In this document: positions 3,074-61,991 of the stretch, in pieces
Layout: each line of letters starts with the position of its first letter
Position numbering within the stretch: the first letter of the stretch is position 1
Source of the DNA: Escherichia phage vB_EcoM_CRJP21
DNA: 64,000 nucleotides
Sequence record: OQ708376.1
Reading direction: 5' to 3' (one strand)
Notes under the pieces: model-generated
Seen by the model: only the letters and a program-made list of their open reading frames with translations
What the model was told of the DNA's origin: nothing
The model's database searches: none
Made by a program: the position numbers and the translations under genes

Positions 3074-4417
3074 TTATTTGTCAGTGAAAGTTATTTTCCA
3101 ATATCCCTGACGATACACAGGCATGATACTTTTATGCCATTTAAATTTGTCATTATATCTATAATAACCATTGTCTTCTTTATTATAAATGTAATTTCGT
3201 ACAGTAGATGGATCAATTAATTGTGCACCGTCATTTGTAATTTTAAACAAATAATTTGATGGGATTTCGGTTTCTTTATAAATGATGTTATGTATACTGT
3301 TATTTACATAATATTGTTCAGGTAATGCACTTGAAAGTACTGAATCTTTCTGCACAAACCCATGTATAGTGTAATCAACAGTATAATTGGTATTATCAAG
3401 CTGTACTATAATTTTGTTGGCATCTTCATTTTCACCATACGACGCTATATGACCTTTTAGTGGGTTGTCTTCTTCAATAGATTGTTGAAATTTAATCCCT
3501 ACTTTTTTGTCATCAAAATTTGGTTCTAGATATTTAAGATATTTTTCCCATGAATATATTCCACCGTTGGGAGAAACCGCAGATAGCGATTGGCTAACCA
3601 AGGTAAGTTGGTATGTATCAGGTAAATTATACTTGGAATTAGTAATTTCTTCAACTTTAATGCATAAATTCTTGGGTGTAAAAACATCTGTTATTATATC
3701 TGAATAATTTCCCATTTCAAAATCAAATTCGTCACGAGCACCTTTAATATTTGTAGTAATCTGTTGGATTAATTTTGGTTTTTCAACAATAGCTGGTAAA
3801 GAAAACCATATTGTCGTTTCAAATGTTAAAACCATTATATCCAAATCTGGGTCAGTTCCTTGTGGAAAACCACGAGTAGAAAACTGACAATCTATTAGTT
3901 CAACATCACTAAGCGATGTCCAATCTAACGGGTTATCAGATAATTGAAGTTGTATACTAGGTGCAAACAAAGTTGAGATTTGTTCGAATAATTCCATTTT
4001 AGTTTGAGTTTGAGTTACCCAAATATTCAAATCAAACGTAAAAGTCCAAGGTACTGGGTTATGTCTTACAATTTTGTATTGTGTGTCAAGATCTTTTGTG
4101 TACTCATTAATAGCAGGGGACTTGTTAGACCCCATTACTATAGTTTCGTTGGCATTAGAACGAATATTTTTACGATCCAACTTTAGTTGATTAACACTTA
4201 TGGTCATTATAGGTGCTGATGGGAGAACATTTTCACTATTCCCATTTATAATTGCTGCTGCCATTCTTGAAATATCGGCATAGCGACATGGAACCTTTTT
4301 GTATTTTGGGTTTCCATTAGCATCAATACCATTTTGTACTTGAAATTCACCAAAAACTCTGATAAGATGTTTCAGTACTCTGCGAAATTGACCGTCATAA
4401 TAATAATCTATTTTCAT
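3074..4417 (-). CDS. Hypothetical protein (447 aa), likely virion structural
   Basis: Long ORF whose start overlaps the stop of the upstream 501-aa ORF (4414-4417); no motif recognised. Confidence 0.5.
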   Translation of the reverse strand: MKIDYYYDGQFRRVLKHLIRVFGEFQVQNGIDANGNPKYKKVPCRYADISRMAAAIINGNSENVLPSAPIMTISVNQLKLDRKNIRSNANETIVMGSNKSPAINEYTKDLDTQYKIVRHNPVPWTFTFDLNIWVTQTQTKMELFEQISTLFAPSIQLQLSDNPLDWTSLSDVELIDCQFSTRGFPQGTDPDLDIMVLTFETTIWFSLPAIVEKPKLIQQITTNIKGARDEFDFEMGNYSDIITDVFTPKNLCIKVEEITNSKYNLPDTYQLTLVSQSLSAVSPNGGIYSWEKYLKYLEPNFDDKKVGIKFQQSIEEDNPLKGHIASYGENEDANKIIVQLDNTNYTVDYTIHGFVQKDSVLSSALPEQYYVNNSIHNIIYKETEIPSNYLFKITNDGAQLIDPSTVRNYIYNKEDNGYYRYNDKFKWHKSIMPVYRQGYWKITFTDK

Positions 4418-5919
4418 TCTGTGTCCTTATGTATGCGATAAACAGTATTAGGTTTAACTGCGTCATGTAATGGAACTTTGTTATCACTATTTACAAACTG
4501 TGTAAGTGCTAAGTCTGCACCTTCCCACGGTTTTCTTCCACCATAATCAAAAATAACCCATGAATTCTTAGTTGCATTGAATTCCCATAACGTAACTGGA
4601 GTATAATCGGTGCGATAGAAATAGTCACCATCTACTGCATCAGTTGGGAACATATTTCCTTCAGGGACTGTACCTCGTGCTGGTGGAATTTTAGGACGAT
4701 AATCTTGTTGCGAATCAATATTACCATATACACAATTGGACGTGAATGGTTCATTGACATAAGTTACCTTTGGTTCCCCCCACTTGTCATCATTATACTG
4801 ATAAATGTGTGGTTCTTTATAAAAAATACAAAAATCTTCCACATCTTCTGGTGGAACATCACTGGTAGTATATTCTACATCACAATTTAACCATTTTTTA
4901 GCACTTTTATCATATTGATACAACGTATAACCTGTCACATCTGCGTCATTTTCTTTAAAGAAGAAGTCACCATCCATTGGTTTTCTGGGAAAGATGGTTC
5001 CACGCTTGACTTCCACAGAAATCCATGTATCATTAACAAACTCTTTGAGTACTGGGTATGTTTTTTTCAAAAAATACATTCCATCGGCAGGTTCTTCTGG
5101 AAAATCATAACCGTTAAGCATATATTTTGATAAATCTACTGTATCAGGTCGATCATCATACAAATGTTCGTTTGTATAATGAATATAGGGTACTTCATCA
5201 TCAGCTTGCATGATGATACGGTTCATGATATCCATTTCATTGCCATAGTTACTGTTTTCCGACGAACCATCATCGGTATTTCCATTACCATTATTAGGGT
5301 CATCTGGATTATCAGGATAATTATTGTTACCGAGTAAATCGGAGTACTCAGGTGAGTCGGTTAGCGGTTTAACTCTAAGTTTATAAATGTGATGTTGCCA
5401 CGTAACCGAGTATCCCTCAGATGTACGAAATGCATCTTGGACGACATAGAAGCGGTTTAGACCTGTATCTTTACCCAATACATCAAAATCACGTAAATTT
5501 GGTAGTTCTATCACATCCCCTGGCATGATTTTTCTACCTAAACGCTGCATCATTGTATTATAATGGATTGTGATGTCCATAGTGTTGAAATTAAAGAACA
5601 ATCCTGGGATTTTCAAGTCTGGAGTTGCTTCTTGAACTTGATAGACACAACTAAGTGTGATAGCTTCAAGGTTGTAGTTTCTGTTTGGTGTGTCACCAAA
5701 AATTAAATCGCCAATACTTGACACAACTGATCCTGAAGATGTATAATCACCTCCATAGGATAAGTCAGTGTTGTCAGCAACTTGTTTTGGACCGACATAT
5801 GCATAAAGCCACATGTCAACTCCACCAATGTTGTATTGTTCAGCAATGGCAGAATCAATGAACTTGTAATCATTGGTTCTACCTTTTTTCCACATTCTAT
5901 ATGTCATGATTGTCTCCAA
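4414..5919 (-). CDS. Hypothetical protein (501 aa), likely virion structural
   Basis: Long ORF, first gene of a minus-strand operon ending with the NUDIX gene; no motif recognised. Confidence 0.5.
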   Translation of the reverse strand: METIMTYRMWKKGRTNDYKFIDSAIAEQYNIGGVDMWLYAYVGPKQVADNTDLSYGGDYTSSGSVVSSIGDLIFGDTPNRNYNLEAITLSCVYQVQEATPDLKIPGLFFNFNTMDITIHYNTMMQRLGRKIMPGDVIELPNLRDFDVLGKDTGLNRFYVVQDAFRTSEGYSVTWQHHIYKLRVKPLTDSPEYSDLLGNNNYPDNPDDPNNGNGNTDDGSSENSNYGNEMDIMNRIIMQADDEVPYIHYTNEHLYDDRPDTVDLSKYMLNGYDFPEEPADGMYFLKKTYPVLKEFVNDTWISVEVKRGTIFPRKPMDGDFFFKENDADVTGYTLYQYDKSAKKWLNCDVEYTTSDVPPEDVEDFCIFYKEPHIYQYNDDKWGEPKVTYVNEPFTSNCVYGNIDSQQDYRPKIPPARGTVPEGNMFPTDAVDGDYFYRTDYTPVTLWEFNATKNSWVIFDYGGRKPWEGADLALTQFVNSDNKVPLHDAVKPNTVYRIHKDTE

Positions 5920-5948: not shown

Positions 5949-5977
5949 GTAGACAAACCGTAAGAATGTGATATAAT
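5949..5977 (+). promoter_or_regulatory. Promoter: GTAGAC -35-like box, 17-bp spacer, TGaTATAAT extended -10
   Basis: TATAAT at 5972-5977 with TG at 5969-5970; -35-like hexamer at 5949-5954; about 40 nt upstream of the ClpA-like start. Confidence 0.45.
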
Positions 5978-6017
5978 GTTTATTAATTAGAGTGACGTGA
6001 ATCACATAGGAGAATAC

Positions 6018-8306
6018 ATGAATCTTACTCAATTGTTCAAAAAAAGCGACGAACTGGCAACATCTCTAGGTCATACATTCTTGACTATTGACCACGTAAG
6101 TGCCACAGTACTGACTATTGATAGCATCAAGAACGTATTTGAAGATATGAACATTGATGCAGACAAACTGCACAACCGCCTAATGAACTATCTTAAAAAT
6201 ACAACAGTTCCACATGCACCAAAAAGTGTTAAAGATGAAGACGCGAATCGCACTTCACTTCTAGTGAATCGCGTTGTACATGAGCTTTCTAAAAAATCAG
6301 TTATTGAACAACTAAAAAGTGATGATTTTTCGATTGATGCATATTTTGTTCTATTCGAATGTCTGTCTTTCCCTAACACAGCACTAGAAGCTGCGTTAAA
6401 AGAAGAAGGTGTTAGCTGTACTGAAGCTGCACGTGCATTACAGAAACACGTTGAGTCACTTGATAAGGGTATCAACTTACAAAGTATTAATGACGAACCG
6501 ATTGGAGATAAAAAAGTGGCCCAACAGCAGCAATCATCTAAACAAAAAGGTTTGGAAGACTATACAACGAATCTAACTGCTCTTGCAAAAGAAGGCAAAC
6601 TAGATCCTATGATTGGTCGCCAGAAAGAATTGTCTGCATTGATTGAGACTCTTGCTCGCAAAACCAAAAAGAATGCTATTCTCACTGGTGAAGCTGGTGT
6701 AGGTAAAACACAAATCATCGACGGGCTTGCACAAGCTATTGCTGATGGTAACGTACCTGAACACCTAAAAGACGTTGAAATTCTTTCACTAAATGTTGGT
6801 GCATTGACTGCTGGTACTAAGTATCGTGGTGAATTTGAAGAACGCATCGACAATTTGCTAAAAGAACTAAAGAAACGTGAAAATACTATTGTTTTCATTG
6901 ATGAAATTCATATTATGGTTGGGGCTGGTTCCGCAAGTAATGGTTCTATGGACATGAGCAATATGCTTAAGCCAGCACTTTCACGTGGTGAGATTCGTGT
7001 AATTGGTGCAACAACATATGATGAATATCGTAAAAATATCGAGAAAGATAGTGCATTAACTCGTCGTTTTATGAAAATTGACGTAGTTGAGCCGACAATT
7101 GATGAAACTCGTGCAATTGTTAATGGTTTGAAACCAACGTATGAAAAATTCCATAATGTTGAGTTCACATCTGATGCAATGGATGCTGTAATTTCTCTCA
7201 GTGATAAATTCCTGAAGAATAAGCACTTCCCAGATAAAGCAATTGATCTAATGGATGCTGCTGCGGCTAAAGTTCGTTCACGTGACAACAATAGTAAGCT
7301 TATTACTTCCAATTTGATTCAAGAAGTTGTTGCTGGTATTGCCAATTTGGATATCAACGTGGTTGCATGTACTGAAAGTGATCGTATGCGTAATCTACCA
7401 GATGCACTACGCTCACGTGTATACGGTCAAGAGGAAGCTATTCAAAAATTAGTTGATAACGTGATGGTAGCTCGTGCAGGACTGCGTGACAAATCTAGTG
7501 TTCAGGGTGCATTTATGTTTGTTGGACCATCTGGTACTGGTAAAACAGAAATTACCAAAGCATTAGCAGACGCAACTGGTGCGGAACTCATTCGCTTTGA
7601 TATGTCAGAATTTTCTCAAGAACATACTGTTTCTAAACTAATTGGTTCACCTCCAGGTTATGTTGGTCATGATTCTGGTAACGGTTTACTGTTGGATAAA
7701 ATTGAGCAGTTCCCTAATGCAGTACTGTTACTTGATGAAATTGAAAAAGCAGATCGTAAAGTACTACTAACCTTCCTACAGGTTTTGGATGAAGGTCGTC
7801 TGACTGGTTCTCAAGGTAAAACTGTATATTTTAATAACGTAACTGTTATTATGACTACAAACCTTGGTGCGGCTGATTCAACAAAGCGTAGCATTGGTAT
7901 GAGCGGTAGTGACACTGCACAGGACAAGGCAATTAAAGCATTCTTGCCACCAGAGTTTATTAACCGTATTGATAGTATCGTTACGTTTAAAGACCTAAGC
8001 AGTGAAGCTATTGACAGCATCATTGATAAGTTCATGGGTGGTTTGAATGAACAAGTCAAAGACCGTAATGTTAAAGTTACATTGACAAAAGCTGCACGTG
8101 AATGGCTTGCGAAAAATGGGGTAAAAGTTGGTATGGGTGCACGTCCAATGAAACGTACCATTGAACAAAACATTCGTGTACCACTAGCTAAAGAAATGTT
8201 GTGTGGTTCACTTGTGAATGGTGGTAACATTACATTTGATGTTATTGATGGTAAAATCGGTATTAAGCCGAAACGTACCAAAGCTGTAGATAAAGCACTA
8301 GTATAA
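6018..8306 (+). CDS. ClpA/ClpC-type Hsp100 AAA+ ATPase (two nucleotide-binding domains, no ClpB middle domain)
   Basis: Walker A GEAGVGKT and GPSGTGKT, Walker B IVFIDEIH and LLLDEIEKA, Clp-N-like N-terminus, SIGM tripeptide at the position of the ClpA IGL ClpP-docking loop. ORF track start at 5997 is GTG; ATG at 6018 has an AGGAGA RBS. Confidence 0.85.
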
Positions 8307-28877: not shown

Positions 28878-28922
28878 CTTTTTGATTCTCCATAATAAGG
28901 GAACATTTGATGTATTTATACG

Positions 28923-28951
28923 TGGGACAAACTGCTTTTTGGTGCTATAAT
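28923..28951 (+). promoter_or_regulatory. Promoter: TGGGAC, 17-bp spacer, TGcTATAAT
   Basis: TGGGAC at 28923-28928, TATAAT at 28946-28951 with TG at 28943-28944; upstream of the gp55-like gene. Confidence 0.5.
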
Positions 28952-29008
28952 AACATTGATGGTACAAGGATTGTACCTATTGGATTTAAACATGGAGAGT
29001 AAAATACA

Positions 29009-29848
29009 ATGACAAATAGACCAAAGCGTAAAAAGTATCTCAATAATGCTGATTTACTTCGTGAAATACAAAAAAGTAAAATTTCATATTGCTGGTTATT
29101 AGACAAATCATATAGTATGTATGATTATATTGTTTTTCATGAGTCAGAAATTACTGCTGAGTTACTAGAAAAAGCTAAGGCAGCACGAATTAAACGACTG
29201 AACAATGAAATGCTTGATAGTATTCGTGAAAAGGAAAATATGAGTGCTAAAAAAGCTAAAGAATATGCAGATGAACACAATTTAGTTATCACTGACGTTC
29301 CAATTGATGAAGTTGTTATTCGTGTTATTACAGATGAACATATTCCACCAGATACTAGAGTTAACTTTGAACCATTCAAGCATTATATTGTAGATAATGA
29401 AGGTATTCTCTATGAAGTTTGTCGTTCTCACTGGAAAGGCGACCTTGAAACTGGTGAATTCAGTACTGTTCATGGTAAAATTACAAATGAACTAGGGAAG
29501 ATGTTCATTAAACTTGCTGAGGAAATCTCTCATAAATCTAATTACAGAAACTATACATACTTAGATGAAATGATGGGTGATGCAAGAATACAATTAGTTA
29601 AAAACGCACTTCTCTTTAAAGAGAGCATTCTTTATAAAAAAGATAAACCAGCAGTTCAGCTAAATCCTTTCTCTTACTATACATCATTCGTAAACAATAG
29701 TTTTCGTTCTATATTGAATAGTGAGAAAAATGTTCGAAATATACGTGATGATTTACTTGAAATGCATGGCTTTACGCCATCACATACACGTCAAATTGAA
29801 ATTGAATTGAACATGATTGAAAGGAAAAATGAAGATGGCTCTGTTTGA
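29009..29848 (+). CDS. Late-transcription sigma factor, gp55-like (with extra internal segment)
   Basis: N-terminus (KKYLNNADLLREI) and C-terminal block (F..YT...DEMMGD..., NPFSYYTSFVNNSF) align by eye with T4 gp55; sits just upstream of gp47 as in T4; 279 aa against 185 aa in T4. Confidence 0.55.
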   Translation: MTNRPKRKKYLNNADLLREIQKSKISYCWLLDKSYSMYDYIVFHESEITAELLEKAKAARIKRLNNEMLDSIREKENMSAKKAKEYADEHNLVITDVPIDEVVIRVITDEHIPPDTRVNFEPFKHYIVDNEGILYEVCRSHWKGDLETGEFSTVHGKITNELGKMFIKLAEEISHKSNYRNYTYLDEMMGDARIQLVKNALLFKESILYKKDKPAVQLNPFSYYTSFVNNSFRSILNSEKNVRNIRDDLLEMHGFTPSHTRQIEIELNMIERKNEDGSV

Positions 29849-33562: not shown

Positions 33563-33570
33563 TATTTATA
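33563..33570 (-). promoter_or_regulatory. T4-type late promoter motif TATAAATA (minus strand)
   Basis: Plus-strand TATTTATA at 33563-33570, about 30 nt upstream of the endo VII-like start codon. Confidence 0.4.
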
Positions 33571-33623: not shown

Positions 33624-33652
33624 TGAGACAACTTTAAAGTTTGTGCTATAAT
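33624..33652 (+). promoter_or_regulatory. Promoter: TGAGAC, 17-bp spacer, TGcTATAAT
   Basis: TGAGAC at 33624-33629, TATAAT at 33647-33652 with TG at 33644-33645; no protein-coding ORF downstream. Confidence 0.5.
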
Positions 33653-33659
33653 GTTTGTT

Positions 33660-34107
33660 GTAGTAATGACAATCCTGTTGAATGCAGAAATGCATATAAA
33701 TTAGAACCTGATCCTATCGAAAATGTAGATGGCAGATGAGCAGTTCAACAGTGCGATGAGCAAAAGAAACCCGTTAGATGTGGGCATAGTTTGAACCCCT
33801 CACGGCAATGCGGCTCAATAAAGAACTCCGATAAGCATACAGAGAGTTCCTCGATAGACATATAAGGATCGCACCTTACCAGATTTGCTAAGGGAGTTTA
33901 TTAAGTGATTTTAATAAACAGCCTGAAGTTTGATTGTATAGACTTTCAGGTGAGTGTCAGGATGATTAAGACTGACGACCGTTGCACATGACTGCGATAG
34001 AGAGAAACAGAGCAACCCGCTTTCGTTCTTAATATATTTTTAAGAAATTCGCAATACAATAAATGCTGAAACCATCAGCGTCAAGAAATAGAGACTTCAT
34101 TGTCTCT
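33660..34107 (+). ncRNA. Candidate structured non-coding RNA (about 450 nt, unknown class)
   Basis: Bounded by the promoter at 33624-33652 and an intrinsic terminator at 34090-34112; no ORF above about 20 codons on either strand; several internal hairpins; visibly less AT-rich than flanks. Confidence 0.35.
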
Positions 34108-34114
34108 TTTTTAT
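34088..34114 (+). terminator. Rho-independent terminator
   Basis: Stem AGAGAC (34090-34095) / GTCTCT (34102-34107), loop TTCATT, T-run 34108-34112. Confidence 0.7.
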
Positions 34115-34329
34115 TGTCTTCATTCCCCTGCGGGGGGATGAAAATGTCCTCAACAAATCCCGTCAAGTATTAAATCTTTTAAAGTTCTTTATAATTAATT
34201 TAATTAAATGAATATGAGTTACGTAGTAACGAATATTCTTCAGCTAACGAATGAAATGAGTTAGATGAATCCAATAATATTAAAATTAATCCTTTCATAA
34301 TTCAATTCAAATAATTCTGTAGTTTAAAA

Positions 34330-43887: not shown

Positions 43888-43919
43888 AATAGGGACTCTT
43901 CGGAGTCCCTTTTCTTTTT
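43888..43919 (+). terminator. Rho-independent terminator
   Basis: Stem GGGACTC / GAGTCCC with TTCG loop, followed by a T-run. Confidence 0.8.
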
Positions 43920-43931
43920 ATTAAAAAACCC

Positions 43932-43960
43932 TTGACACAATGTTCTGGAATGTATATAAT
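43932..43960 (+). promoter_or_regulatory. Consensus sigma70-type promoter TTGACA-17-TATAAT
   Basis: TTGACA at 43932-43937, exactly 17-bp spacer, TATAAT at 43955-43960; about 30 nt upstream of the 43993 ORF. Confidence 0.65.
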
Positions 43961-43992
43961 ACGCACATACACGAAAATAAAGAGACAAAATT

Positions 43993-45090
43993 ATGCCAAA
44001 CGTAAGTATCACCAAAGAAGAGTTTATCAGCAAAATGACTGCTAAGTATGGTGAATTTGATTTCAGTACTTTAGTATTCAAAGCAAGTAAGACAACAGTG
44101 AAATGTAACAAGTGTGGAAAAGAAAACACCAAACCTGCACTTCGTCACATTGCATGTACATGTGCATCATGTTATTCAAACATGTCACAACGTTCAAACA
44201 ACGACACATTCATCAGTACTGTAGAAACTAAATTTGGAAAAGATAAATTCAAATTTGATAAACTAAATTACACTAATGCTATATCAAAAGTAACAATTTT
44301 CTGCACAGATGAAGATCACAATGATTACTTTGAAATTACACCCAATAAATTTCTTTCTGGTAAAGGATGCCCCGTATGTAATAAAAATGAAGCATACAGT
44401 ACTGAAGAGTTCAAAGAAAAAGTAAAAGATAATTATGGTGATTTATTGGATTTAACTAACACGGTGTATGTAAATCAAAAAACTAAAGTAACTGTGTATT
44501 GTAACGCAGGTAATCATGAATGGACAGTTGATCCAAAAACTTTACTTGTTGGTAAGACTGGATGTGGTACATGCTCCGGTAAAGGCGGTCGAAGTACTGA
44601 ACGTTTCATTGAACTTGTGTCGCCTATCCATAACCATAAGTATGATTATAGCTTGGTGGATTACAAGACTAGTGATGAACATGTGGATATTATTTGTCCT
44701 GAACATGGTGTCTTTAAACAAATACCCAAATCTCATATGGCAGGAAGAGGATGTCCATCATGTGGTGAGTATGGTTATCAACCATCAAAGCCTGGATATT
44801 TCTATGTACAAAAACTATCTAATAACTCAAAAGTCGTTTACAAATACGGAATTACCGGAGACATGAAGAGACGAATTCATGAACAAAGTCGCAATTCTGA
44901 GTTCGAGCATGAAGTACTGGTAGAACGTTACTTTGAGGATGGTAATAAACCATTATTATTGGAAAAGTTTATCAAGCAATACATTGAAAGTGGTGTTGTA
45001 AGTACTGAAGAGTTACCGTCAGGATTTACTGAAACATTTGATGCTAAGTATCTTGAAAGTGTTTTAGAAATTGTAAATACTTTTAAGTAA
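43993..45090 (+). CDS. Multi-zinc-ribbon protein with C-terminal T5orf172 / GIY-YIG-like domain
   Basis: Repeated CxxC pairs (CNKCG, CTCASC, CPVCN, GCGTCSG, CPSCG), then GYFYV...YKYGIT...R...E...SGFTETF resembling the T5orf172 fold. Confidence 0.55.
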   Translation: MPNVSITKEEFISKMTAKYGEFDFSTLVFKASKTTVKCNKCGKENTKPALRHIACTCASCYSNMSQRSNNDTFISTVETKFGKDKFKFDKLNYTNAISKVTIFCTDEDHNDYFEITPNKFLSGKGCPVCNKNEAYSTEEFKEKVKDNYGDLLDLTNTVYVNQKTKVTVYCNAGNHEWTVDPKTLLVGKTGCGTCSGKGGRSTERFIELVSPIHNHKYDYSLVDYKTSDEHVDIICPEHGVFKQIPKSHMAGRGCPSCGEYGYQPSKPGYFYVQKLSNNSKVVYKYGITGDMKRRIHEQSRNSEFEHEVLVERYFEDGNKPLLLEKFIKQYIESGVVSTEELPSGFTETFDAKYLESVLEIVNTFK

Positions 45091-47473: not shown

Positions 47474-47989
47474 ATGCAACTAACAAATTTTAAGATGTAT
47501 GAAAAAGAAGGTGGTAATCCTAATTCTTTGTATATGATGTCCGATGAAGGTATGGATTGGTATGAATCTCGTGAATTGTTTGACATTAATAAAGCAAAAT
47601 TTATGTATGATACTAATGGTTTAATTGTTTCAGCATCATATAACATTTATGATCTAGTACCTTTAGGTTTTAGTGTTTCTGAAATTGAATATGATGGTGA
47701 TATTAACAAACTTTATGGTATGGTTTACGATGGAAATACTATTCATGACTATATTGAAACTAAAGAAGAAAAAATTGAACGCCTAAAAAATGAATTATCT
47801 AATTTGAAATACATTGCAATTCAAGAACTTGGACACTTAAAAACTGCTATGGATCTTGAGTTAGCAACTGATGAAGAAGCTGTATTGTTTGTAAAATTGA
47901 AAGATTATGTAACGCAATTGAATTCAATCAAACCAGCAGACATGATCAAGAAAACATTTTCATTTCCAGTTAAACCGGAAAAAAAATGA
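47474..47989 (+). CDS. Tail fibre assembly chaperone (Tfa-like)
   Basis: C-terminal DLELATDEEAVLFVKLKDYVTQLNSIKP resembles lambda Tfa [27 protein letters not shown]; AAGGA RBS before ATG at 47474 (track start 47432 overlaps the fibre gene). Confidence 0.65.
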   Translation: MQLTNFKMYEKEGGNPNSLYMMSDEGMDWYESRELFDINKAKFMYDTNGLIVSASYNIYDLVPLGFSVSEIEYDGDINKLYGMVYDGNTIHDYIETKEEKIERLKNELSNLKYIAIQELGHLKTAMDLELATDEEAVLFVKLKDYVTQLNSIKPADMIKKTFSFPVKPEKK

Positions 47990-48017
47990 GACAACACGTA
48001 AAGACGTGATACAATTA

Positions 48018-48055
48018 AGTCATCTCACCGATTGTGGTGAGGTGACATTTTTTTG
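48018..48055 (+). terminator. Rho-independent terminator
   Basis: Stem TCATCTCACC / GGTGAGGTGA (one mismatch), loop GATTGT, then a 7-T run. Confidence 0.6.
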
Positions 48056-48079
48056 AAAACACACATGGAGAAATACAAA

Positions 48080-48382
48080 ATGGCTAAATCTAAAAAAGAA
48101 GTTAAAGTTGAAATTCGTGATCTAAACGATGAACAACGTAAACGTCTCGGCGATGCACTTAACAACATTGTTGTACAACTAACTTTCATTGATGATACCA
48201 AAGCATCCTTATCTGATTTTGTTTCTAGTGTTTCTGATGAACTTGGTATCGATGCATCTGATATCAAACAAGCTGCACAACGTATGTACAAAGGTGATTA
48301 CTTTGACAAACAAAATAAACTCGATAATATCGAAACTATTCTTAGTGTTACTAATAATCTTCCACAAGCAGATGATTACTAA
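48080..48382 (+). CDS. Hypothetical small protein
   Basis: ORF with GGAG RBS before ATG at 48080 (track start 48053 overlaps the terminator); no motif. Confidence 0.4.
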   Translation: MAKSKKEVKVEIRDLNDEQRKRLGDALNNIVVQLTFIDDTKASLSDFVSSVSDELGIDASDIKQAAQRMYKGDYFDKQNKLDNIETILSVTNNLPQADDY

Positions 48383-48461: not shown

Positions 48462-51400
48462 ATGTATATCGATGCTTATATGGAACGTAAACGTACTGGT
48501 GATATTCTTCATGTAGTTGAACGTAAGAATGGTAAACGTATTCTACGCGAATTAGAACCAGTATATGAATATTATGTTGAATCCCCACAAGGAACACATA
48601 AAACTGTTTATGGTACAATGGCTAAACATTTTGAGTTTCAAACTCAAGCTCAAATGAATAAAAGTGTAGAGAAACACAAAAGTGAAGGTCTACGTATTTT
48701 TGAAAGTGATTGTAACATTACATTTAAAACATTAGCCAAAGAATATATGGGAAAAGGCTCACCCGATTTGAACATCGTGTTCTTCGATATCGAGACTGAT
48801 TTCCATAAGAAATTTGGTTATGCTCCACCATCAGACCCGTTTAACCGAGTAACCGCTATTTCTCTATATCAATCATGGACTGGAAAGGATTATGTACTTA
48901 CTTTACCACCTGCTGATATGGAAATTTATGAAGCACAAGATATTGTTCGCCAACTAAATGAAGAAACAAACGATCCTAACAGTACTGTAATTTTATATAC
49001 AGACGAAAAGGAAATGTTTATGGAATTCTTTAGTTTAATTGATGATTCTGATGTTATTTCAGGATGGAATAGTGAATTCTTTGATATTCCATATATGATC
49101 AATCGAACTAAAAAAATCTTCAATGAAGCAACAACTGCTCGTTGGTGTTTATGGAATAAAAAACCAAATTCACGTGAAGCAGACAACTTTGGTAAAACTG
49201 TTCAAACATATGATCTGGTAGGTCGCGTCCATCTTGATTATTTGGCTTTGTATAAGAAACATGCTGGTCAAGTTGAACAATCTTATAAACTAGATTATAT
49301 TGCTGAAAAAGTAACTAAAGAAAATAAAGTATCATATGAAGGTTCATTGGATAAACTTTACAGAGAGGATTACATTACTTTCTTGCGTTATTCTAAACAG
49401 GATAGTATTCTTCTTAAAAAGATTGATGCTAAATGTGACTATATCAACCTACACAATCGACTTGCACACAAAGAATGTGTACTTATCAGCACAACAATGG
49501 GTTCAGTAGCACTAATCGACACTGCTATTATCAACTTAGCACATACTCGTGGTGAAGTTGTTTTTAACAAAGCACCTAAAGATGATCTTGAGTTTGATCC
49601 AGAAATGGAATATTATGGTGAAGATGGTGAAGATGAAGATGAGAAAATTAGTGCAAAAGCAGCAGGTGCATGGGTACAAGATCCAGTACTAGGACTTGTA
49701 AGTGACCTTGGGTGTACTGACTTTAACTCTCTTTACCCTACAGTTCTACGCACTTTGGGTATGAGTACTGAATGTATTCTTGGTCAATTACGTCAAGATT
49801 ACACCGATGCGTATCTTGCAGCTAAAATCCAAGAACAGAAGAACAAATCTAAATCTAAATCATTTGAACCAGATTGGACTGCGGCATGGCATGGTTTATT
49901 TGCTGCTGTTGAATTTACAATGGTTCATGAAAAGTCAGAAGAAACATTGATTGTTGATTTAGAAGATGGGAGTTCTTTTAAAGCAACGGGCAAAGAGCTA
50001 TATGATATTATTTTTGCAGAAGATAGTACTATTGTACTTAGTGCAAACGGAACACTTTTTGATAAGTCTAAGTCTGGTGTAATTCCTGACATTCTAACTC
50101 AATGGTATTCTGAACGTAAAGCACAGCAAAAAATGGTCATTGACTACAAACATATGTATACTGATGGTTGGGAGTTTAATGGCTATGAAAAAGTCGAACC
50201 ACTACTATCAAACTATACCCCTGGTACAATGTTTAGAACTAATATTCATGATAATGATCCTGTATACTTACTTCGTAAAGAAATTGGTAAAGGACAATGG
50301 GATGAAGTTGCTAAGTTGATTGTAGAAAATGGTTTAGTACTAAAAGATGGTCGTATTTTCTGTCCTAAAGAAGAAAAAGATTACTTCAAACAACGTAGTG
50401 CTTTCTGGAAACAGAACCAACAGATTCGTAAGATTCTTCTAAACAGTCTATATGGTGCACTATTGAACAAAGGTTCTCGTTTCTTTGACAAACGTTTAGG
50501 TCAATCCGTAACATTAACTGGACGTTCTATGACCAAACATATGGCAAGTCGTATCAATGAGATTACTACTGGTGTATATAATCACCAAGGTGGTTCAGTA
50601 ATTTATGGTGATACTGACTCAGTTTACTTTAGTGTAACGCATTATCTGAAAGAACAAGGTATTCCATATAATCTATCTAAAGAAGAGATTGTTGATATGT
50701 ATATTAAAATTGGTGAAGAAGTTGGTGAATCTTTCCCATCATTTATGCATGAGATGTTCAACACTGGTATTGAAAAAGGTAAGATTGTTGGTGCAGACCT
50801 TGAGATGGTTGGTTCACGTGGCCTATTCTTGAAGAAAAAACGTTATGCAATTCTGAAGTACTGGGAAGATGGGTTCCGTAAAGATATTGATGGTAAACCA
50901 GGTGAAATCAAAGCGATGGGTCTTGAAATTAAACGCTCAGACACGCCAAAATACATCCAGAACTTCCTAGAAGAGACTCTAATCGCATTACTGGTAGGTG
51001 AGAGTGAACAGCAGCTAAAACAGCGTGTACGTGAGTTTAAGGACGTATTTAAGGATATGCCTGTACATGAAAAAGGTTCACCAAAAACTGTAAAAAACTA
51101 CACTAATTTAGAGGCTGAATATCAGCTAACTGGTAAGTGTAAAGTTGGTCACGTTCTTGCTGGTATCCAATGGAACCGTCTACGTGAAGTTTATGATGAT
51201 AAATCTGTTCCAGAAGTAACAGATGGAACAAAAGTAATTGTCTGTAACTTAAAAGATAATCCTATGGGAATTAAAGCTGTTGGATATCCAATTGACTGTG
51301 TTGAGTATCTACCAGAATGGTTCTTGGAACTACCATTTGATACTGAAAAAATGGAAGAGATTGTTCTAACTAAAAAATTAGAGAATATTTTTGGTATTTT

Positions 51401-51467
51401 GGATATGGATATTGGTATTCATGAAAAAAGTACTGCGTCAGTAAACAATGGATTCTTCACTTGGTAA
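48462..51467 (+). CDS. gp43: Family-B DNA polymerase, gp43-like
   Basis: Exo I motif FFDIETDF, polymerase motif A DFNSLYP, motif C YGDTDS; 1001 aa. Confidence 0.9.
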   Translation: MYIDAYMERKRTGDILHVVERKNGKRILRELEPVYEYYVESPQGTHKTVYGTMAKHFEFQTQAQMNKSVEKHKSEGLRIFESDCNITFKTLAKEYMGKGSPDLNIVFFDIETDFHKKFGYAPPSDPFNRVTAISLYQSWTGKDYVLTLPPADMEIYEAQDIVRQLNEETNDPNSTVILYTDEKEMFMEFFSLIDDSDVISGWNSEFFDIPYMINRTKKIFNEATTARWCLWNKKPNSREADNFGKTVQTYDLVGRVHLDYLALYKKHAGQVEQSYKLDYIAEKVTKENKVSYEGSLDKLYREDYITFLRYSKQDSILLKKIDAKCDYINLHNRLAHKECVLISTTMGSVALIDTAIINLAHTRGEVVFNKAPKDDLEFDPEMEYYGEDGEDEDEKISAKAAGAWVQDPVLGLVSDLGCTDFNSLYPTVLRTLGMSTECILGQLRQDYTDAYLAAKIQEQKNKSKSKSFEPDWTAAWHGLFAAVEFTMVHEKSEETLIVDLEDGSSFKATGKELYDIIFAEDSTIVLSANGTLFDKSKSGVIPDILTQWYSERKAQQKMVIDYKHMYTDGWEFNGYEKVEPLLSNYTPGTMFRTNIHDNDPVYLLRKEIGKGQWDEVAKLIVENGLVLKDGRIFCPKEEKDYFKQRSAFWKQNQQIRKILLNSLYGALLNKGSRFFDKRLGQSVTLTGRSMTKHMASRINEITTGVYNHQGGSVIYGDTDSVYFSVTHYLKEQGIPYNLSKEEIVDMYIKIGEEVGESFPSFMHEMFNTGIEKGKIVGADLEMVGSRGLFLKKKRYAILKYWEDGFRKDIDGKPGEIKAMGLEIKRSDTPKYIQNFLEETLIALLVGESEQQLKQRVREFKDVFKDMPVHEKGSPKTVKNYTNLEAEYQLTGKCKVGHVLAGIQWNRLREVYDDKSVPEVTDGTKVIVCNLKDNPMGIKAVGYPIDCVEYLPEWFLELPFDTEKMEEIVLTKKLENIFGILDMDIGIHEKSTASVNNGFFTW

Positions 51468-51925: not shown

Positions 51926-51954
51926 TGAGACAAGCATCATTTTTGAGATATAAT
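51926..51954 (+). promoter_or_regulatory. Promoter: TGAGAC, 17-bp spacer, TATAAT
   Basis: TGAGAC at 51926-51931, TATAAT at 51949-51954; upstream of the clamp-like gene. Confidence 0.5.
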
Positions 51955-52018: not shown

Positions 52019-52750
52019 ATGGATCTACGCAACGTACTACGTGACCTCGTAAACACAACCAGTGGTATTGACTTCTCTTGTATTGCAGTAAGCAGTGAAG
52101 ACCGTGGTGAAGGACAACGTGTATATCTAGAAGCGTACACAGATGACCGAACTCTTGTAATGCGAGCATATACTAAAGAAGATGTTCCTGAAGTTCAGGG
52201 TCGTTTTGGCTTAGGTAATCTAGGTCTTCTTCAGGGTCTAATGTCTCTAAAAACATACAGTACCGAAGGAACCACAATCACATCAAATGTTAAAGATGGT
52301 TCAGTTAAAAGTCTGGCATTTAAATCTGAAGATGCAAGCACTACATTTATGGTACAAGCTGAAAAACTTATTCCAGTTCAACCACGTTTTCATGAACAAC
52401 CATATGACGTACAGGTTATTCCTAGTGCAGCAAAAGTTCAGGAACTAAAGAGTTTTTCTGGTGTATTTAAATCTTTTAGTTCTCTTGTAACTCCGTATAC
52501 TGAAGGCGACACCCTATACTTTCACGTTGGTGAGAAAAACAAAAGTAACCACGTTGGTTCTCTAGCTTTTTCTAAAACTGAAGGTGAATTAGGTCTTGGT
52601 TTTGGTTATAATATTGATCGCGTACTTCAAGCATTATCTCGCGTATCTAATGCCGAATCAGTATCACTTGGTATTACTAAAACTGGTATGCTAAATGTAA
52701 CACTAGATACTGGAATTGCAGTATACAAATTTTACGTAACAGGCTGCTAA
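52019..52750 (+). CDS. Sliding clamp, gp45-like (putative)
   Basis: By-eye similarity to T4 gp45 (N-terminal L..N.TSGI; LGNLGLLQGL vs LNGFLGILSL; DASTTFMV vs DARSTIFW); similar size; downstream of the polymerase. Confidence 0.5.
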   Translation: MDLRNVLRDLVNTTSGIDFSCIAVSSEDRGEGQRVYLEAYTDDRTLVMRAYTKEDVPEVQGRFGLGNLGLLQGLMSLKTYSTEGTTITSNVKDGSVKSLAFKSEDASTTFMVQAEKLIPVQPRFHEQPYDVQVIPSAAKVQELKSFSGVFKSFSSLVTPYTEGDTLYFHVGEKNKSNHVGSLAFSKTEGELGLGFGYNIDRVLQALSRVSNAESVSLGITKTGMLNVTLDTGIAVYKFYVTGC

Positions 52751-55393: not shown

Positions 55394-55515
55394 GAAAATC
55401 TCCTTGTCAAATTTTGTGCAGGTATATCCTGCTTAAAGTTATTTATCAAAAAATATCACTAGCATTTAAATTTACTGAGATATTTAATGAATTTCTATGA
55501 TATTATTTATCAAAT

Positions 55516-55544
55516 CTGGGAAAGTGATTCAAGATGTGCTATAA
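55516..55544 (+). promoter_or_regulatory. Promoter: TGGGAA, 17-bp spacer, TGcTATAAT
   Basis: TGGGAA at 55516-55521, TATAAT at 55539-55544 with TG at 55536-55537; upstream of RNase H. Confidence 0.45.
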
Positions 55545-55554
55545 TTATTAATGA

Positions 55555-60812
<5,258 letters not shown>

Positions 60813-60822
60813 TTAAAAAATA

Positions 60823-60851
60823 TGGGACAGTATAAAAACCTGTGCTATAAT
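60823..60851 (+). promoter_or_regulatory. Promoter P2: TGGGAC, 17-bp spacer, TGcTATAAT
   Basis: TGGGAC at 60823-60828, TATAAT at 60846-60851 with TG at 60843-60844; about 90 nt upstream of the gp32-like start. Confidence 0.5.
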
Positions 60852-60938
60852 GTAAAACGTTGAAGGAACAATGAAGTTTCTGAAACATTGAAGCCAATTA
60901 ACAAATAACAAAGAAACCCAAAATCAAGGAAGATATAT

Positions 60939-61991
60939 ATGAAATCTCTAGCTGAAATTCGTGCACACCTAAAAGCAGAACAAGAAAAAGCAGAAGCTCA
61001 AAAGAATGGTACATTTACTGGCGAGCGTAAAGCTGATTCGTTCTTAGCTTTCTGGAACGTACCTTATAACGAACCACTAAACCTACGTTTTCTACCAGAT
61101 GCAGATGAGTCTAACCCATTCTTCTGGCGTGAACGTGACATGATTAACCTAACTTTCAATGGTGTAGTCGGTATGCACACTGATAAAGTTACCGTTCAAG
61201 TACCTTGTAACGAAATGTGGGTTCCTAAATCCTGTCCGGTTCTGAAAGAAGTACGTCAATGGTTCCAAAGTGCGAATGAAACAGGGAACGAAGAACTAAA
61301 AGCAATGGCTGGTCGTTACTGGAAGAAGAAAACCTATCTAATGCAATGTTTTATTGCTCCTGATAGCGTTGCAGTAAAAGACGACATTGCACCAGAAAAT
61401 CCAATTCGTCGTATTCTGGCTAACAAAGATATCTTTGATAAAGTTAAATCCATCCTGCTAAACCCAGGCATCAAAGAGTCTCCAACTCACTACGTTCAAG
61501 GTCGTGATTTTGGTATTGTTAAAACTAAGAATGGTGGTGGTTATAATAGCTACGACATGTCTCAATTCTCCATGTCTGAGCGTCCACTAAACGAAGAAGA
61601 ACTAGCAGCAATTGAAAAATATGGCCTATACAATCTAAATGATTTTATGCCAAAACAACCAACTCCAGAAGAGTTGAAAGCAATTGAAGAAATGTTCGAA
61701 GCATCAGTAAATGGTGAAGCATATGATCCAGCACGTTGGGCATTTGCATATCGTCCAGCAGGTGTACCAAAACCTAACTCTGGAACTGTTACTGAATCAA
61801 AACCAACTCCTGCTCCAGTACAACAAGAGTCAGAACCTGCACCAGTAGCACCTACTGCTCCAGTTACACCAGCCCCACAAGCTGCTCCAGTAACTCCAGT
61901 CGCTACCCCAGCAGCAACCACTCCTGAAGCACCAAAAGAACAACTATCTGCATCTGCACTAGTTGCTCGTTTGAAACAACAAGGTAAGTAA
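60939..61991 (+). CDS. gp32: Single-stranded DNA-binding protein, gp32-like
   Basis: N-terminal region with LRFLP and Cys-containing core aligns with T4 gp32 by eye; acidic/Pro-Ala-rich C-terminal tail; adjacent to uvsX. Confidence 0.75.
   Translation: MKSLAEIRAHLKAEQEKAEAQKNGTFTGERKADSFLAFWNVPYNEPLNLRFLPDADESNPFFWRERDMINLTFNGVVGMHTDKVTVQVPCNEMWVPKSCPVLKEVRQWFQSANETGNEELKAMAGRYWKKKTYLMQCFIAPDSVAVKDDIAPENPIRRILANKDIFDKVKSILLNPGIKESPTHYVQGRDFGIVKTKNGGGYNSYDMSQFSMSERPLNEEELAAIEKYGLYNLNDFMPKQPTPEELKAIEEMFEASVNGEAYDPARWAFAYRPAGVPKPNSGTVTESKPTPAPVQQESEPAPVAPTAPVTPAPQAAPVTPVATPAATTPEAPKEQLSASALVARLKQQGK

Follow-up and report, generated by a model that had tools for sequence, protein, structure and literature searches.

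The window analyzed here, a stretch of 64,000 nucleotides from Escherichia phage vB_EcoM_CRJP21 (OQ708376.1), carries at positions 28923–28951 of its plus strand a promoter upstream of a gp55-like late sigma gene (29009–29848, +), which was assigned by annotation and by tblastn matches to the T4-type gp55 of cyanophages and others. The window has a GC content of 34% and is the reverse complement of positions 206.5–270.5 kb of Escherichia phage SHEFM2K, with 99.2–99.7% identity to this phage and to other jumbo phages of the 121Q/PBECO4 type (Asteriusvirus, ~348 kb). It combines baseplate and head genes with a replication/recombination module, and encodes the gp55-like sigma factor, SbcCD, endonuclease VII, the portal and major head proteins, a DNA polymerase, an RNase H-like exonuclease, the terminase, SSB and UvsX. 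The promoter ahead of the gp55-like gene belongs to a real, recurring type, here called class M, with the arrangement TG(G/A)GACAA, N11, (G/A)TGn, TATAAT, and the preliminary description in which this type had been noticed was confirmed. The genome-wide motif counts given below were obtained from the whole annotated SHEFM2K genome, the closest full genome to the window.

Class M sites and their relation to known promoters

It had been claimed that one architecture, a TG(G/A)GAC-like hexamer exactly 17 bp upstream of TATAAT, recurred at seven plus-strand positions, and all seven were found as described, except that the TGGGAA site starts at 55517 and not at 55516. A position weight matrix (PWM) scan of the window retrieved 8 sites, all on the plus strand and none inside an open reading frame (ORF); seven of them lie 16–163 nt upstream of a plus-strand ORF, and the eighth, at 33624, precedes a non-coding region. 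The promoter of the gp55-like gene comprises the box TGGGACAA (28923–28930), GTGC (28942–28945) and TATAAT (28946–28951), with a PWM score of 26.3 and a predicted start near 28958. At 5949–5977 (+), GTAGACAA...GTGA TATAAT is found 20 nt upstream of the ATP-dependent protease ORF 5997–8306, and at 33624–33652 (+), TGAGACAA...GTGC TATAAT, whose PWM score of 41.0 is among the highest, precedes a non-coding RNA. The site additional to the seven lies at 47987–48015 (+; TGAGACAA...GTGA TACAAT), before the operon of ORF 48053–48382 and the DNA polymerase gene (48462–51467). The site at 51926–51954 (+; TGAGACAA...GAGA TATAAT) precedes the hypothetical ORF 52019–52750, for which a PDB sequence search gave no match, so that its earlier "clamp-like" label could not be confirmed; it is the sole window site devoid of TGn, present in the other 7 of 8. 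An RNase H/5′–3′ exonuclease-like ORF (55561–56598), whose RaK2 orthologue is annotated rnh, is preceded by TGGGAAAG...GTGC TATAAT at 55517–55545 (+), and the SSB gene (60939–61991) by a tandem pair, distal at 60748–60776 (+; CGGGACAA...GTGA TATAAT) and proximal at 60823–60851 (+; TGGGACAG...GTGC TATAAT).

The spacing proved to be as exact as had been stated. The pattern RGACA-N16-TATAAT, which has the same layout as hexamer-N17-TATAAT, occurred six times on the plus strand, and N16 was the only spacer between 10 and 23 that gave a plus-strand match. In 300 dinucleotide-preserving shuffles of the window, the degenerate pattern of the preliminary description, observed seven times, had a mean of 0.53 and a maximum of 4 occurrences, and another shuffle comparison of the pattern gave 7 observed against 1.36; RGACA-N16-TATAAT was observed 6 times against 0.21, and RGAC-N14-TGnTATAAT 5 times against 0.04. 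The hexamer by itself was found 13 times on the plus and 6 times on the minus strand, with about 17 per strand expected from a base-composition estimate. Enrichment over expectation was thus seen for the composite pattern and not for the upstream hexamer alone, and it is the combination of the elements at a constant distance that carries the signal. The genome-wide motif search that had been called for, performed here by an iterated PWM on SHEFM2K, revealed 34 sites, all of them on the coding strand, while shuffled sequences yielded none.

The aligned sites also revealed a motif longer than previously described, in which the octamer TGrGACAA is preceded by a stretch rich in A and followed by an extended –10 element that hardly varies. 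The consensus of the 34 SHEFM2K sites presented the A-rich tract from –45 to –38, T-G-G/a-G-A-C-A-A from –35 to –28, a weak AA around –24 and then t-G/a-T-G-a/c-TATAAT-g. In the extended –10 element, 34/34 sites had G at –14 and 31/34 had T at –15, with R at –16, and the –10 hexamer read TATAAT in 32/34 sites, the other 2 having TACAAT. The T-G-G-G bases of the box were conserved in 23–29 of the 34 sites, and the positions matching the TT of TTGACA were occupied by G in 25/34 sites and then by G/A. Besides the gp55-like gene, the DNA polymerase operon and SSB with its tandem pair, class M sites of SHEFM2K precede the primase/helicase genes, two exonucleases, a DprA/thymidylate-synthase operon, the ATP-dependent protease, Nudix genes, a tRNA-Ser and several non-coding regions.

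As had been suspected, class M differs from the host-type promoters that the same phage carries. About 99 combinations of TTGACA and TATAAT with at most one mismatch were counted on the SHEFM2K coding strand, and exact TTGACA promoters were distributed over spacers of 16 (19 sites), 17 (16 sites) and 18 bp (7 sites), in contrast to the other box and the fixed spacer of class M, set at 16 from xxGACA and thus departing from the canonical σ70 arrangement of TTGACA with a 17 ± 1 spacer. These TTGACA promoters cluster at 50–165 kb among small genes annotated without function, the presumed early region, and carry the same TATAATg context as class M. Late-type TATAAATA elements form a separate class upstream of structural genes, and class M does not conform to the T4-type late pattern of TATAAATA at –10 with no –35 element. 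A k-mer enrichment of upstream regions recovered the Shine-Dalgarno, late and early/M elements and no fourth promoter class, although this approach was crude and a weak class could have been missed. A σ54-type reading, suggested by the similarity of TGGGAC to the TGGCAC of –24 elements, was rejected because no TTGC occurs 4–5 nt downstream, because the element stands at –35 and because the box changes from one phage lineage to another.

The T4 middle promoters depend on a MotA box with the consensus (a/t)(a/t)(a/t)TGCTT(t/c)A, centered at about –30, and are activated by MotA with the co-activator AsiA. Class M follows the same logic, a σ70-type –10 element (often with TGn in T4; TATAAT in 32/34 sites here) joined to a phage element that replaces the –35 hexamer, and it shares the kind of regulon, with replication genes and the late sigma gene among the targets. 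Nevertheless, its box is unrelated to that of MotA, as had been supposed: TGrGACAA spans –35 to –28, and no TGCTT was present in the aligned sites. Moreover, T4 has no full RpoD-like sigma factor, whereas the present phage encodes one. Neither tblastn nor phmmer --max searches with T4 MotA and AsiA, run on the closest complete genome as DNA and as all ORFs of its six frames, retrieved a significant homologue (best E = 0.09), although structural analogues may exist, and no such protein was named in the PHROG-based annotation. A MotA/AsiA mechanism carried out by homologous proteins was accordingly rejected.

The closest counterpart of class M was found in Pectobacterium phage CBB, for which 18 "divergent RpoD-like" promoters found by MEME were reported as "Promoter 1" in Table S6 (Buttimer et al. 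2017, PMC5259590). These are 29-mers of the form TG(A/G)AAC(G)...(A/G)TGnTATAAT, summarized as TGAAAC-N17-TATAAT, 11 of the 18 being placed before DNA-synthesis genes and one before a gp55-like gene; two further classes, TTGACA (early) and ATAAATA (late), were described in CBB, together with CBB_513, an early sigma factor of the RpoD-like type that the paper does not connect with the motif (PMC5259590). The same motif was stated for Cronobacter phage GAP32 by Abbasifar et al. 2014, as cited in PMC5259590. Class M and Promoter 1 share the 29-nt architecture, a mostly (A/G)TGn extension, the gp55-like and DNA-synthesis genes as targets and the coexistence with TTGACA and ATAAATA classes. All 8 window and 34 genome sites carry TGrrAy 17 bp upstream of TATAAT, (A/G)TGn stands before the –10 element, and in position the gp55 promoter and the SSB pair correspond to those of CBB, GAP32, BF, Yen9-04 and others. 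The difference resides in the box, TG(A/G)AAC(G) there and TG(G/A)GAC(A)(A) here: the consensus TGAAACG is replaced by TGGGACAA, a lineage variant within the same architecture. Class M is therefore not new: it represents a lineage variant of promoters that were predicted in related phages in 2017, and the preliminary description rediscovered them in their 121Q-lineage form; for 121Q-type phages themselves, no earlier report of the class was found in the searchable literature, and the RaK2 genome paper makes no mention of promoters or sigma factors. The published work on CBB and GAP32 consists of a MEME prediction, with no recognizing factor and no cross-lineage comparison; new here are the drift of the box across lineages and its match to the –35-reading residues of a phage sigma factor.

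Drift of the box and the phage sigma factor

The promoter upstream of gp55 was kept in 19 IMG/VR loci and 5 GenBank phages, and the tandem SSB pair in many related genomes from both sources, a positional conservation that reaches ~73% protein identity for gp55 and ~63% for SSB. Across the Rak2-like clade, orthologous promoters presented the same geometry and a lineage-specific box. Box consensuses were derived from larger regions. The 34 sites of the 121Q type have TGGGACAA (TGGGAC) and Munch/7t3-like phages TGGGACA, while TGAGAC was found in 5/9 sites of EJP2, TGGGAT in 6/8 sites of Hallingskeid, TG(A/G)AACG in GAP32, CBB, BF, Yen9-04 and XbC2, and TGAAC(A/G)A (TGAACA) in RaK2, where the spacers are 16–17 and TGn is often absent. 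Position 4 of the box was G in 29/34 SHEFM2K sites versus A in 15/15 of the visible CBB sites (p = 1e-8), and position 6 differed as C versus T between SHEFM2K and Hallingskeid (p = 6e-4). Farther away, Paride (PA5oct-like) presented a plain TTGACT-N17-TAAAAT before gp55, and more distant SSB homologues had plain TTGACA-type promoters at this position. As far as is known, region 4.2 of σ70 is essentially invariant in Enterobacterales, and if it is so conserved in the hosts concerned, a reader supplied by the host only would not explain the lineage-specific boxes.

A possible reader is encoded by the phage itself, outside the window. Gene M2K_0334 of SHEFM2K, corresponding to 121Q gene 167 (L004:26458–27423, –), codes for an RpoD-like sigma factor of 321 aa comprising regions 1.2–4, in which Pfam regions 2, 3 and 4 were recognized and which was most similar to RpoD/SigA structures (E = 7e-17). 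The gene belongs to an operon behind TTGACA promoters. It was conserved in the Rak2-like phages examined and is fast-evolving, with 31–60% identity between lineages; a single-sequence IMG/VR search with it returned only a near-identical copy, and its relatives were recovered by an alignment-based search. The organisms named in the search for this sigma factor included no Pseudomonas phage. In region 4.2, the turn of the helix-turn-helix carries a 7-residue insertion relative to σ70 (GF-VDDNGKYVKS-RSSIHRKY), of which G, D and G are invariant in all lineages.

In σ70, R584 reads –31, R584A bringing about a preference for A:T, and E585/R588 determine –33 (PMC2613000). The residues at the equivalent positions 584/585/588 were compared with the boxes of the same lineages: R/S/H accompanies TGGGAC in 121Q and WPEC5, R/T/H accompanies TGGGAC in Munch-like phages, R/C/H is found with TGAGAC in EJP2, H/S/H with TGGGAT in Hallingskeid, K/A/S with TG(A/G)AACG in GAP32, CBB, BF, Yen9-04, XbC2 and 4 metagenomic genomes, and R/G/H with TGAACA in RaK2. 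Box position 6, equivalent to –31, was C when residue 584 was R or K and T when it was H, and box position 4, equivalent to –33, was G where residue 585 was S, T or C, and A where that residue was A or G. The changing box positions are exactly those that residues 584, 585 and 588 read or determine in σ70. Moreover, the Munch-like sigmas are only 35–37% identical to that of 121Q, as distant as those of GAP32, and both their contact residues and their box were retained. The boxes predicted from the recognition helix for WPEC5, 7t3 and XbC2 also held.

A candidate middle regulon and competing explanations

The proposal that such boxes mark a phage-specific early/middle class agrees with the distinct motif, the placement before replication genes and the lineage-specific boxes, and we infer middle rather than early timing. 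On a slight balance of probability, class M promoters would be middle promoters, driving the second step of a cascade from host σ70 through the phage sigma factor to the gp55-like factor. In the first step, the host σ70 holoenzyme would transcribe the early region, including the phage sigma gene, from TTGACA promoters. In the second, for which the co-variation provides support, the phage sigma factor bound to the host core RNA polymerase would use its modified region 4.2 to recognize TGrGACAA at –35 to –28, along with a (T)RTGnTATAAT element at a fixed distance. The genes switched on in this way would be those of replication/recombination and nucleotide metabolism, the gp55-like gene, a tRNA gene and those of four paralogous structured RNAs. 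In the third, by homology with T4 gp55, the gp55-like factor would drive the TATAAATA late promoters. The more specific proposition, that the phage sigma factor reads the box by means of its altered, insertion-bearing region 4.2, that the clade comprises matched sigma/–35 variants and that the regulon includes the four-copy RNA family, is given slightly less than an even chance.

Phage sigma cascades are known from Bacillus phage SPO1, in which gp28 is followed by gp33/34, from phiEco32 with gp36 and from the phiEco32-like phage 7-11, and the sigmas of SPO1 and phiEco32 recognize –10 elements unlike those of the host. The cascade proposed here would resemble them in that an early phage-encoded protein of the σ70 family redirects the host core polymerase to a new promoter class. 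It would differ in that the –10 element matches the host consensus exactly, the departure being confined to the element at the –35 position, and in ending with a T4-type gp55.

Several observations weigh against recognition by the phage sigma factor. The –10 half of class M is a perfect σ70 extended –10 element (TRTGnTATAAT), and the σ70 residues lost in the phage protein are the readers of TGn and T-12 and the wedge at –12/–11: the tryptophan pair of region 2.3, W433/W434, is replaced by small residues (S/S or T/T), Q437 by M and T440 by Y in the 121Q type, E458 by V in all lineages, and H455 is Y or H. The alignment of the recognition helix to σ70 was made by hand across the 7-residue insertion. 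The co-variation amounts to ~4–5 lineage transitions, with statistics that ignore phylogeny, the contrast between EJP2 and Hallingskeid is a trend only, and RaK2, with its relaxed 16/17 spacer and frequent absence of TGn, fits no simple code. Furthermore, no start-site, timing, transcriptome or biochemical data for the clade (Asteriusvirus, Alcyoneusvirus, Mimasvirus) were found in the searchable literature.

These discrepancies sustain an explanation by sigma appropriation, which is unlikely yet credible given that the phage sigma factor lacks the TGn readers, that independent transitions are few and that RaK2 is a misfit. According to it, host σ70 would occupy TRTGnTATAAT, a fast-evolving phage protein would bind the box and/or remodel region 4 of σ70, in a manner functionally comparable to MotA/AsiA at T4 middle promoters, and the phage sigma factor would serve another purpose. 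It accommodates the exact match of the –10 and extended –10 elements to the σ70 consensus, the TATAATg shared with early promoters, the phage sigma factor devoid of E458, W433/W434 and, in some lineages, Q437, and the placement of the box at –35 to –28, where T4 puts its activator site; the many early genes with no recognizable function could hide such a factor. On the other hand, no homologue of MotA or AsiA emerged from the searches described above, a conserved phage sigma factor would be left with no promoter class, and the mapping of the box changes onto residues 584, 585 and 588 would have to be a coincidence. Pfam scans for a helix-turn-helix or anti-sigma partner, run on the five genes that precede the sigma gene and on three candidate regulators, revealed nothing informative, the only matches being a zinc finger of the DksA type and a DUF5856/ferritin-like protein elsewhere in the genome.

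It is less probable still that class M sites are ordinary extended –10 promoters of host σ70 with a weak –35 element (GACA, 16-bp spacer), active from the start of infection with no help from a phage factor, the box serving only to adjust their strength or as an UP-like element. TGnTATAAT is generally enough for initiation by σ70 in the absence of a –35 element, and class M shares T at –15 and G at –14 next to TATAAT with the E. coli extended –10 (TRTGn) promoters (PMC2613000), which differ, however, in having no conserved non-TTGACA element at a fixed distance at –35. GGGACA retains 4/6 consensus bases, the TTGAACA of RaK2 with its spacer of 16–17 is near TTGACA, and some genes have TTGACA and class M promoters in tandem (5718 and 5949). 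Such an explanation is disfavored because it leaves unexplained the conserved non-consensus T-G-G-G bases, the fixed spacer, as opposed to the 16–18 bp of the TTGACA promoters of the phage itself, and the coherent genome-wide shifts of the box between lineages of Enterobacterales phages, if the host region 4.2 is as invariant as stated above. Finally, an artefact of chance or composition in an AT-rich genome deserves practically no credence and was rejected, since, even though TATAAT is common in the window (>140 copies) and the hexamer alone is not enriched, the pattern was observed 7 times against 0.5 expected and 34 times against none genome-wide, on one strand, with one spacer and in intergenic positions only, with orthologous positions kept down to ~73% protein identity.

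The Rak2-like jumbo phages, such as 121Q, PBECO4, RaK2, GAP32, CBB and many therapy candidates, carry ~550–700 genes and have no experimentally defined transcription program; reviews go no further than to consider that their sigma homologues "likely" steer the host polymerase to phage promoters (PMC7824862, PMC7598289, PMC13282480). The comparison of sequences presented here proposes a concrete promoter class for their sigma factor, and the 34 sites would define a middle regulon in which the late sigma gene is included. If the co-variation holds, the clade would represent a natural specificity-swap series for the recognition of –35 elements by region 4.2, as well as a source of orthogonal sigma/promoter pairs.

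Structured RNAs, leader elements and neighboring promoters

The candidate non-coding RNA at 33624 had been assigned to the same temporal class as the genes behind this promoter type, and its membership was corroborated by three paralogues that, like itself, stand behind class M promoters. The structured RNA extends over 33657–34185 (+) from the 33624 promoter, with a hairpin resembling an intrinsic terminator at ~34090–34116 and conservation to ~34185. The paralogues in the same genome were located at L002:21440–21905 (–), L004:25880–26365 (–) and L008:15010–15560 (–), each directly behind a class M promoter, so that a 121Q-type genome carries four copies, one of them directly after the phage sigma gene. 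Syntenic orthologues were found in Hallingskeid and EJP2 (L086:41470–41975, –, and L089:5160–5665, +), with 74% identity to the RNA of the window and an orthologous promoter there too. This hitherto undescribed family is ~430–460 nt long, and its copies alternate long invariant blocks with variable hairpins; the RNAalifold consensus fold of six sequences comprised 102 pairs, 39 of them with compensatory double changes. No ORF is present in the RNA at 33624, which is ~460 nt long, no Rfam family was detected on the plus strand of this region, and ARAGORN found no tRNA or tmRNA in it. Published annotations place tiny "hypothetical" ORFs in these regions, and several such mini-ORFs can now be reassigned as falling within promoter-flanked RNA genes.

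The 5′ leader of the gp55-like mRNA presented a hairpin at 28961–28977 (+; GGTAC-AAGGATT-GTACC), ~3 nt after the predicted start. Among 13 distinct sequences, 100% of the cells were paired and 3/5 pairs were changed on both sides, with slid controls reaching at most 53%. The loop, A(A/C)GGAU, resembles a Shine-Dalgarno sequence, and the hairpin could act as a 5′ stabilizer or control the translation of the late sigma factor. In the 5′ leader of SSB (~60880–60935, +), repeated AACAAAGAA(A/G)C(A/C)AA elements were kept across lineages. T4 gp32 represses its own translation through an unstructured operator, which these repeats recall.

Late-type promoters were found back-to-back with class M sites. 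The TATAAATA element of a divergent structural operon lies at 28913–28920 (–), 2 bp from the class M box at 28923, and its complement, GTATTTATA, just upstream of the gp55 box was kept in all lineages. Similarly, TATAAATA/GATAAATA elements of divergent structural genes were placed at 55504–55511 (–), next to the box at 55517 (2–5 bp for this box and the one at 28923), and at 33563–33570 (–), ~50 bp upstream of the 33624 box. With such a layout, late promoters could interfere with class M late in infection, and late complexes could shut off middle promoters, that of the late sigma gene included.

An early-type TTGACA-N18-TATAAT promoter was identified at 5718–5747 (+), inside the 3′ part of the minus-strand ORF 4414–5919 and ~200 bp upstream of the class M site at 5949, and transcription of the protease gene thus appears to be served by an early-type and a class M promoter in tandem. 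Some early promoters form a subclass lying within a hairpin that resembles a terminator, aaaaGGGTTGACTTCGGTCAGCCCTTTTTGCTATAAT. Their –35 hexamer is part of a GC-rich stem with a T-run after it, so that a single compact element appears to be both terminator and promoter; such elements were found on the minus strand of SHEFM2K at 104190, 105911, 106836, 111834, 114539, 114721, 117963, 70404, 66728 and 61747. Another early-promoter cassette, aaaaaGTACTTGCA-N16-gTATAATgttttacatc, whose –35 element is TTGCA and not TTGACA, is repeated ~17 times before small genes on the minus strand of SHEFM2K at 61–78 kb. Lastly, the endonuclease ORF 43993–45090 is preceded by a perfect TTGACA-N17-TATAAT (43932–43960). 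Positions 43919–45083 are the sole segment of the window that is non-collinear with SHEFM2K, which has ~1.06 kb of unrelated DNA there between flanks of >99% identity, and this segment looks like a mobile homing-endonuclease cassette that is equipped with a promoter of host type and has been inserted between the major head gene and late genes farther downstream.

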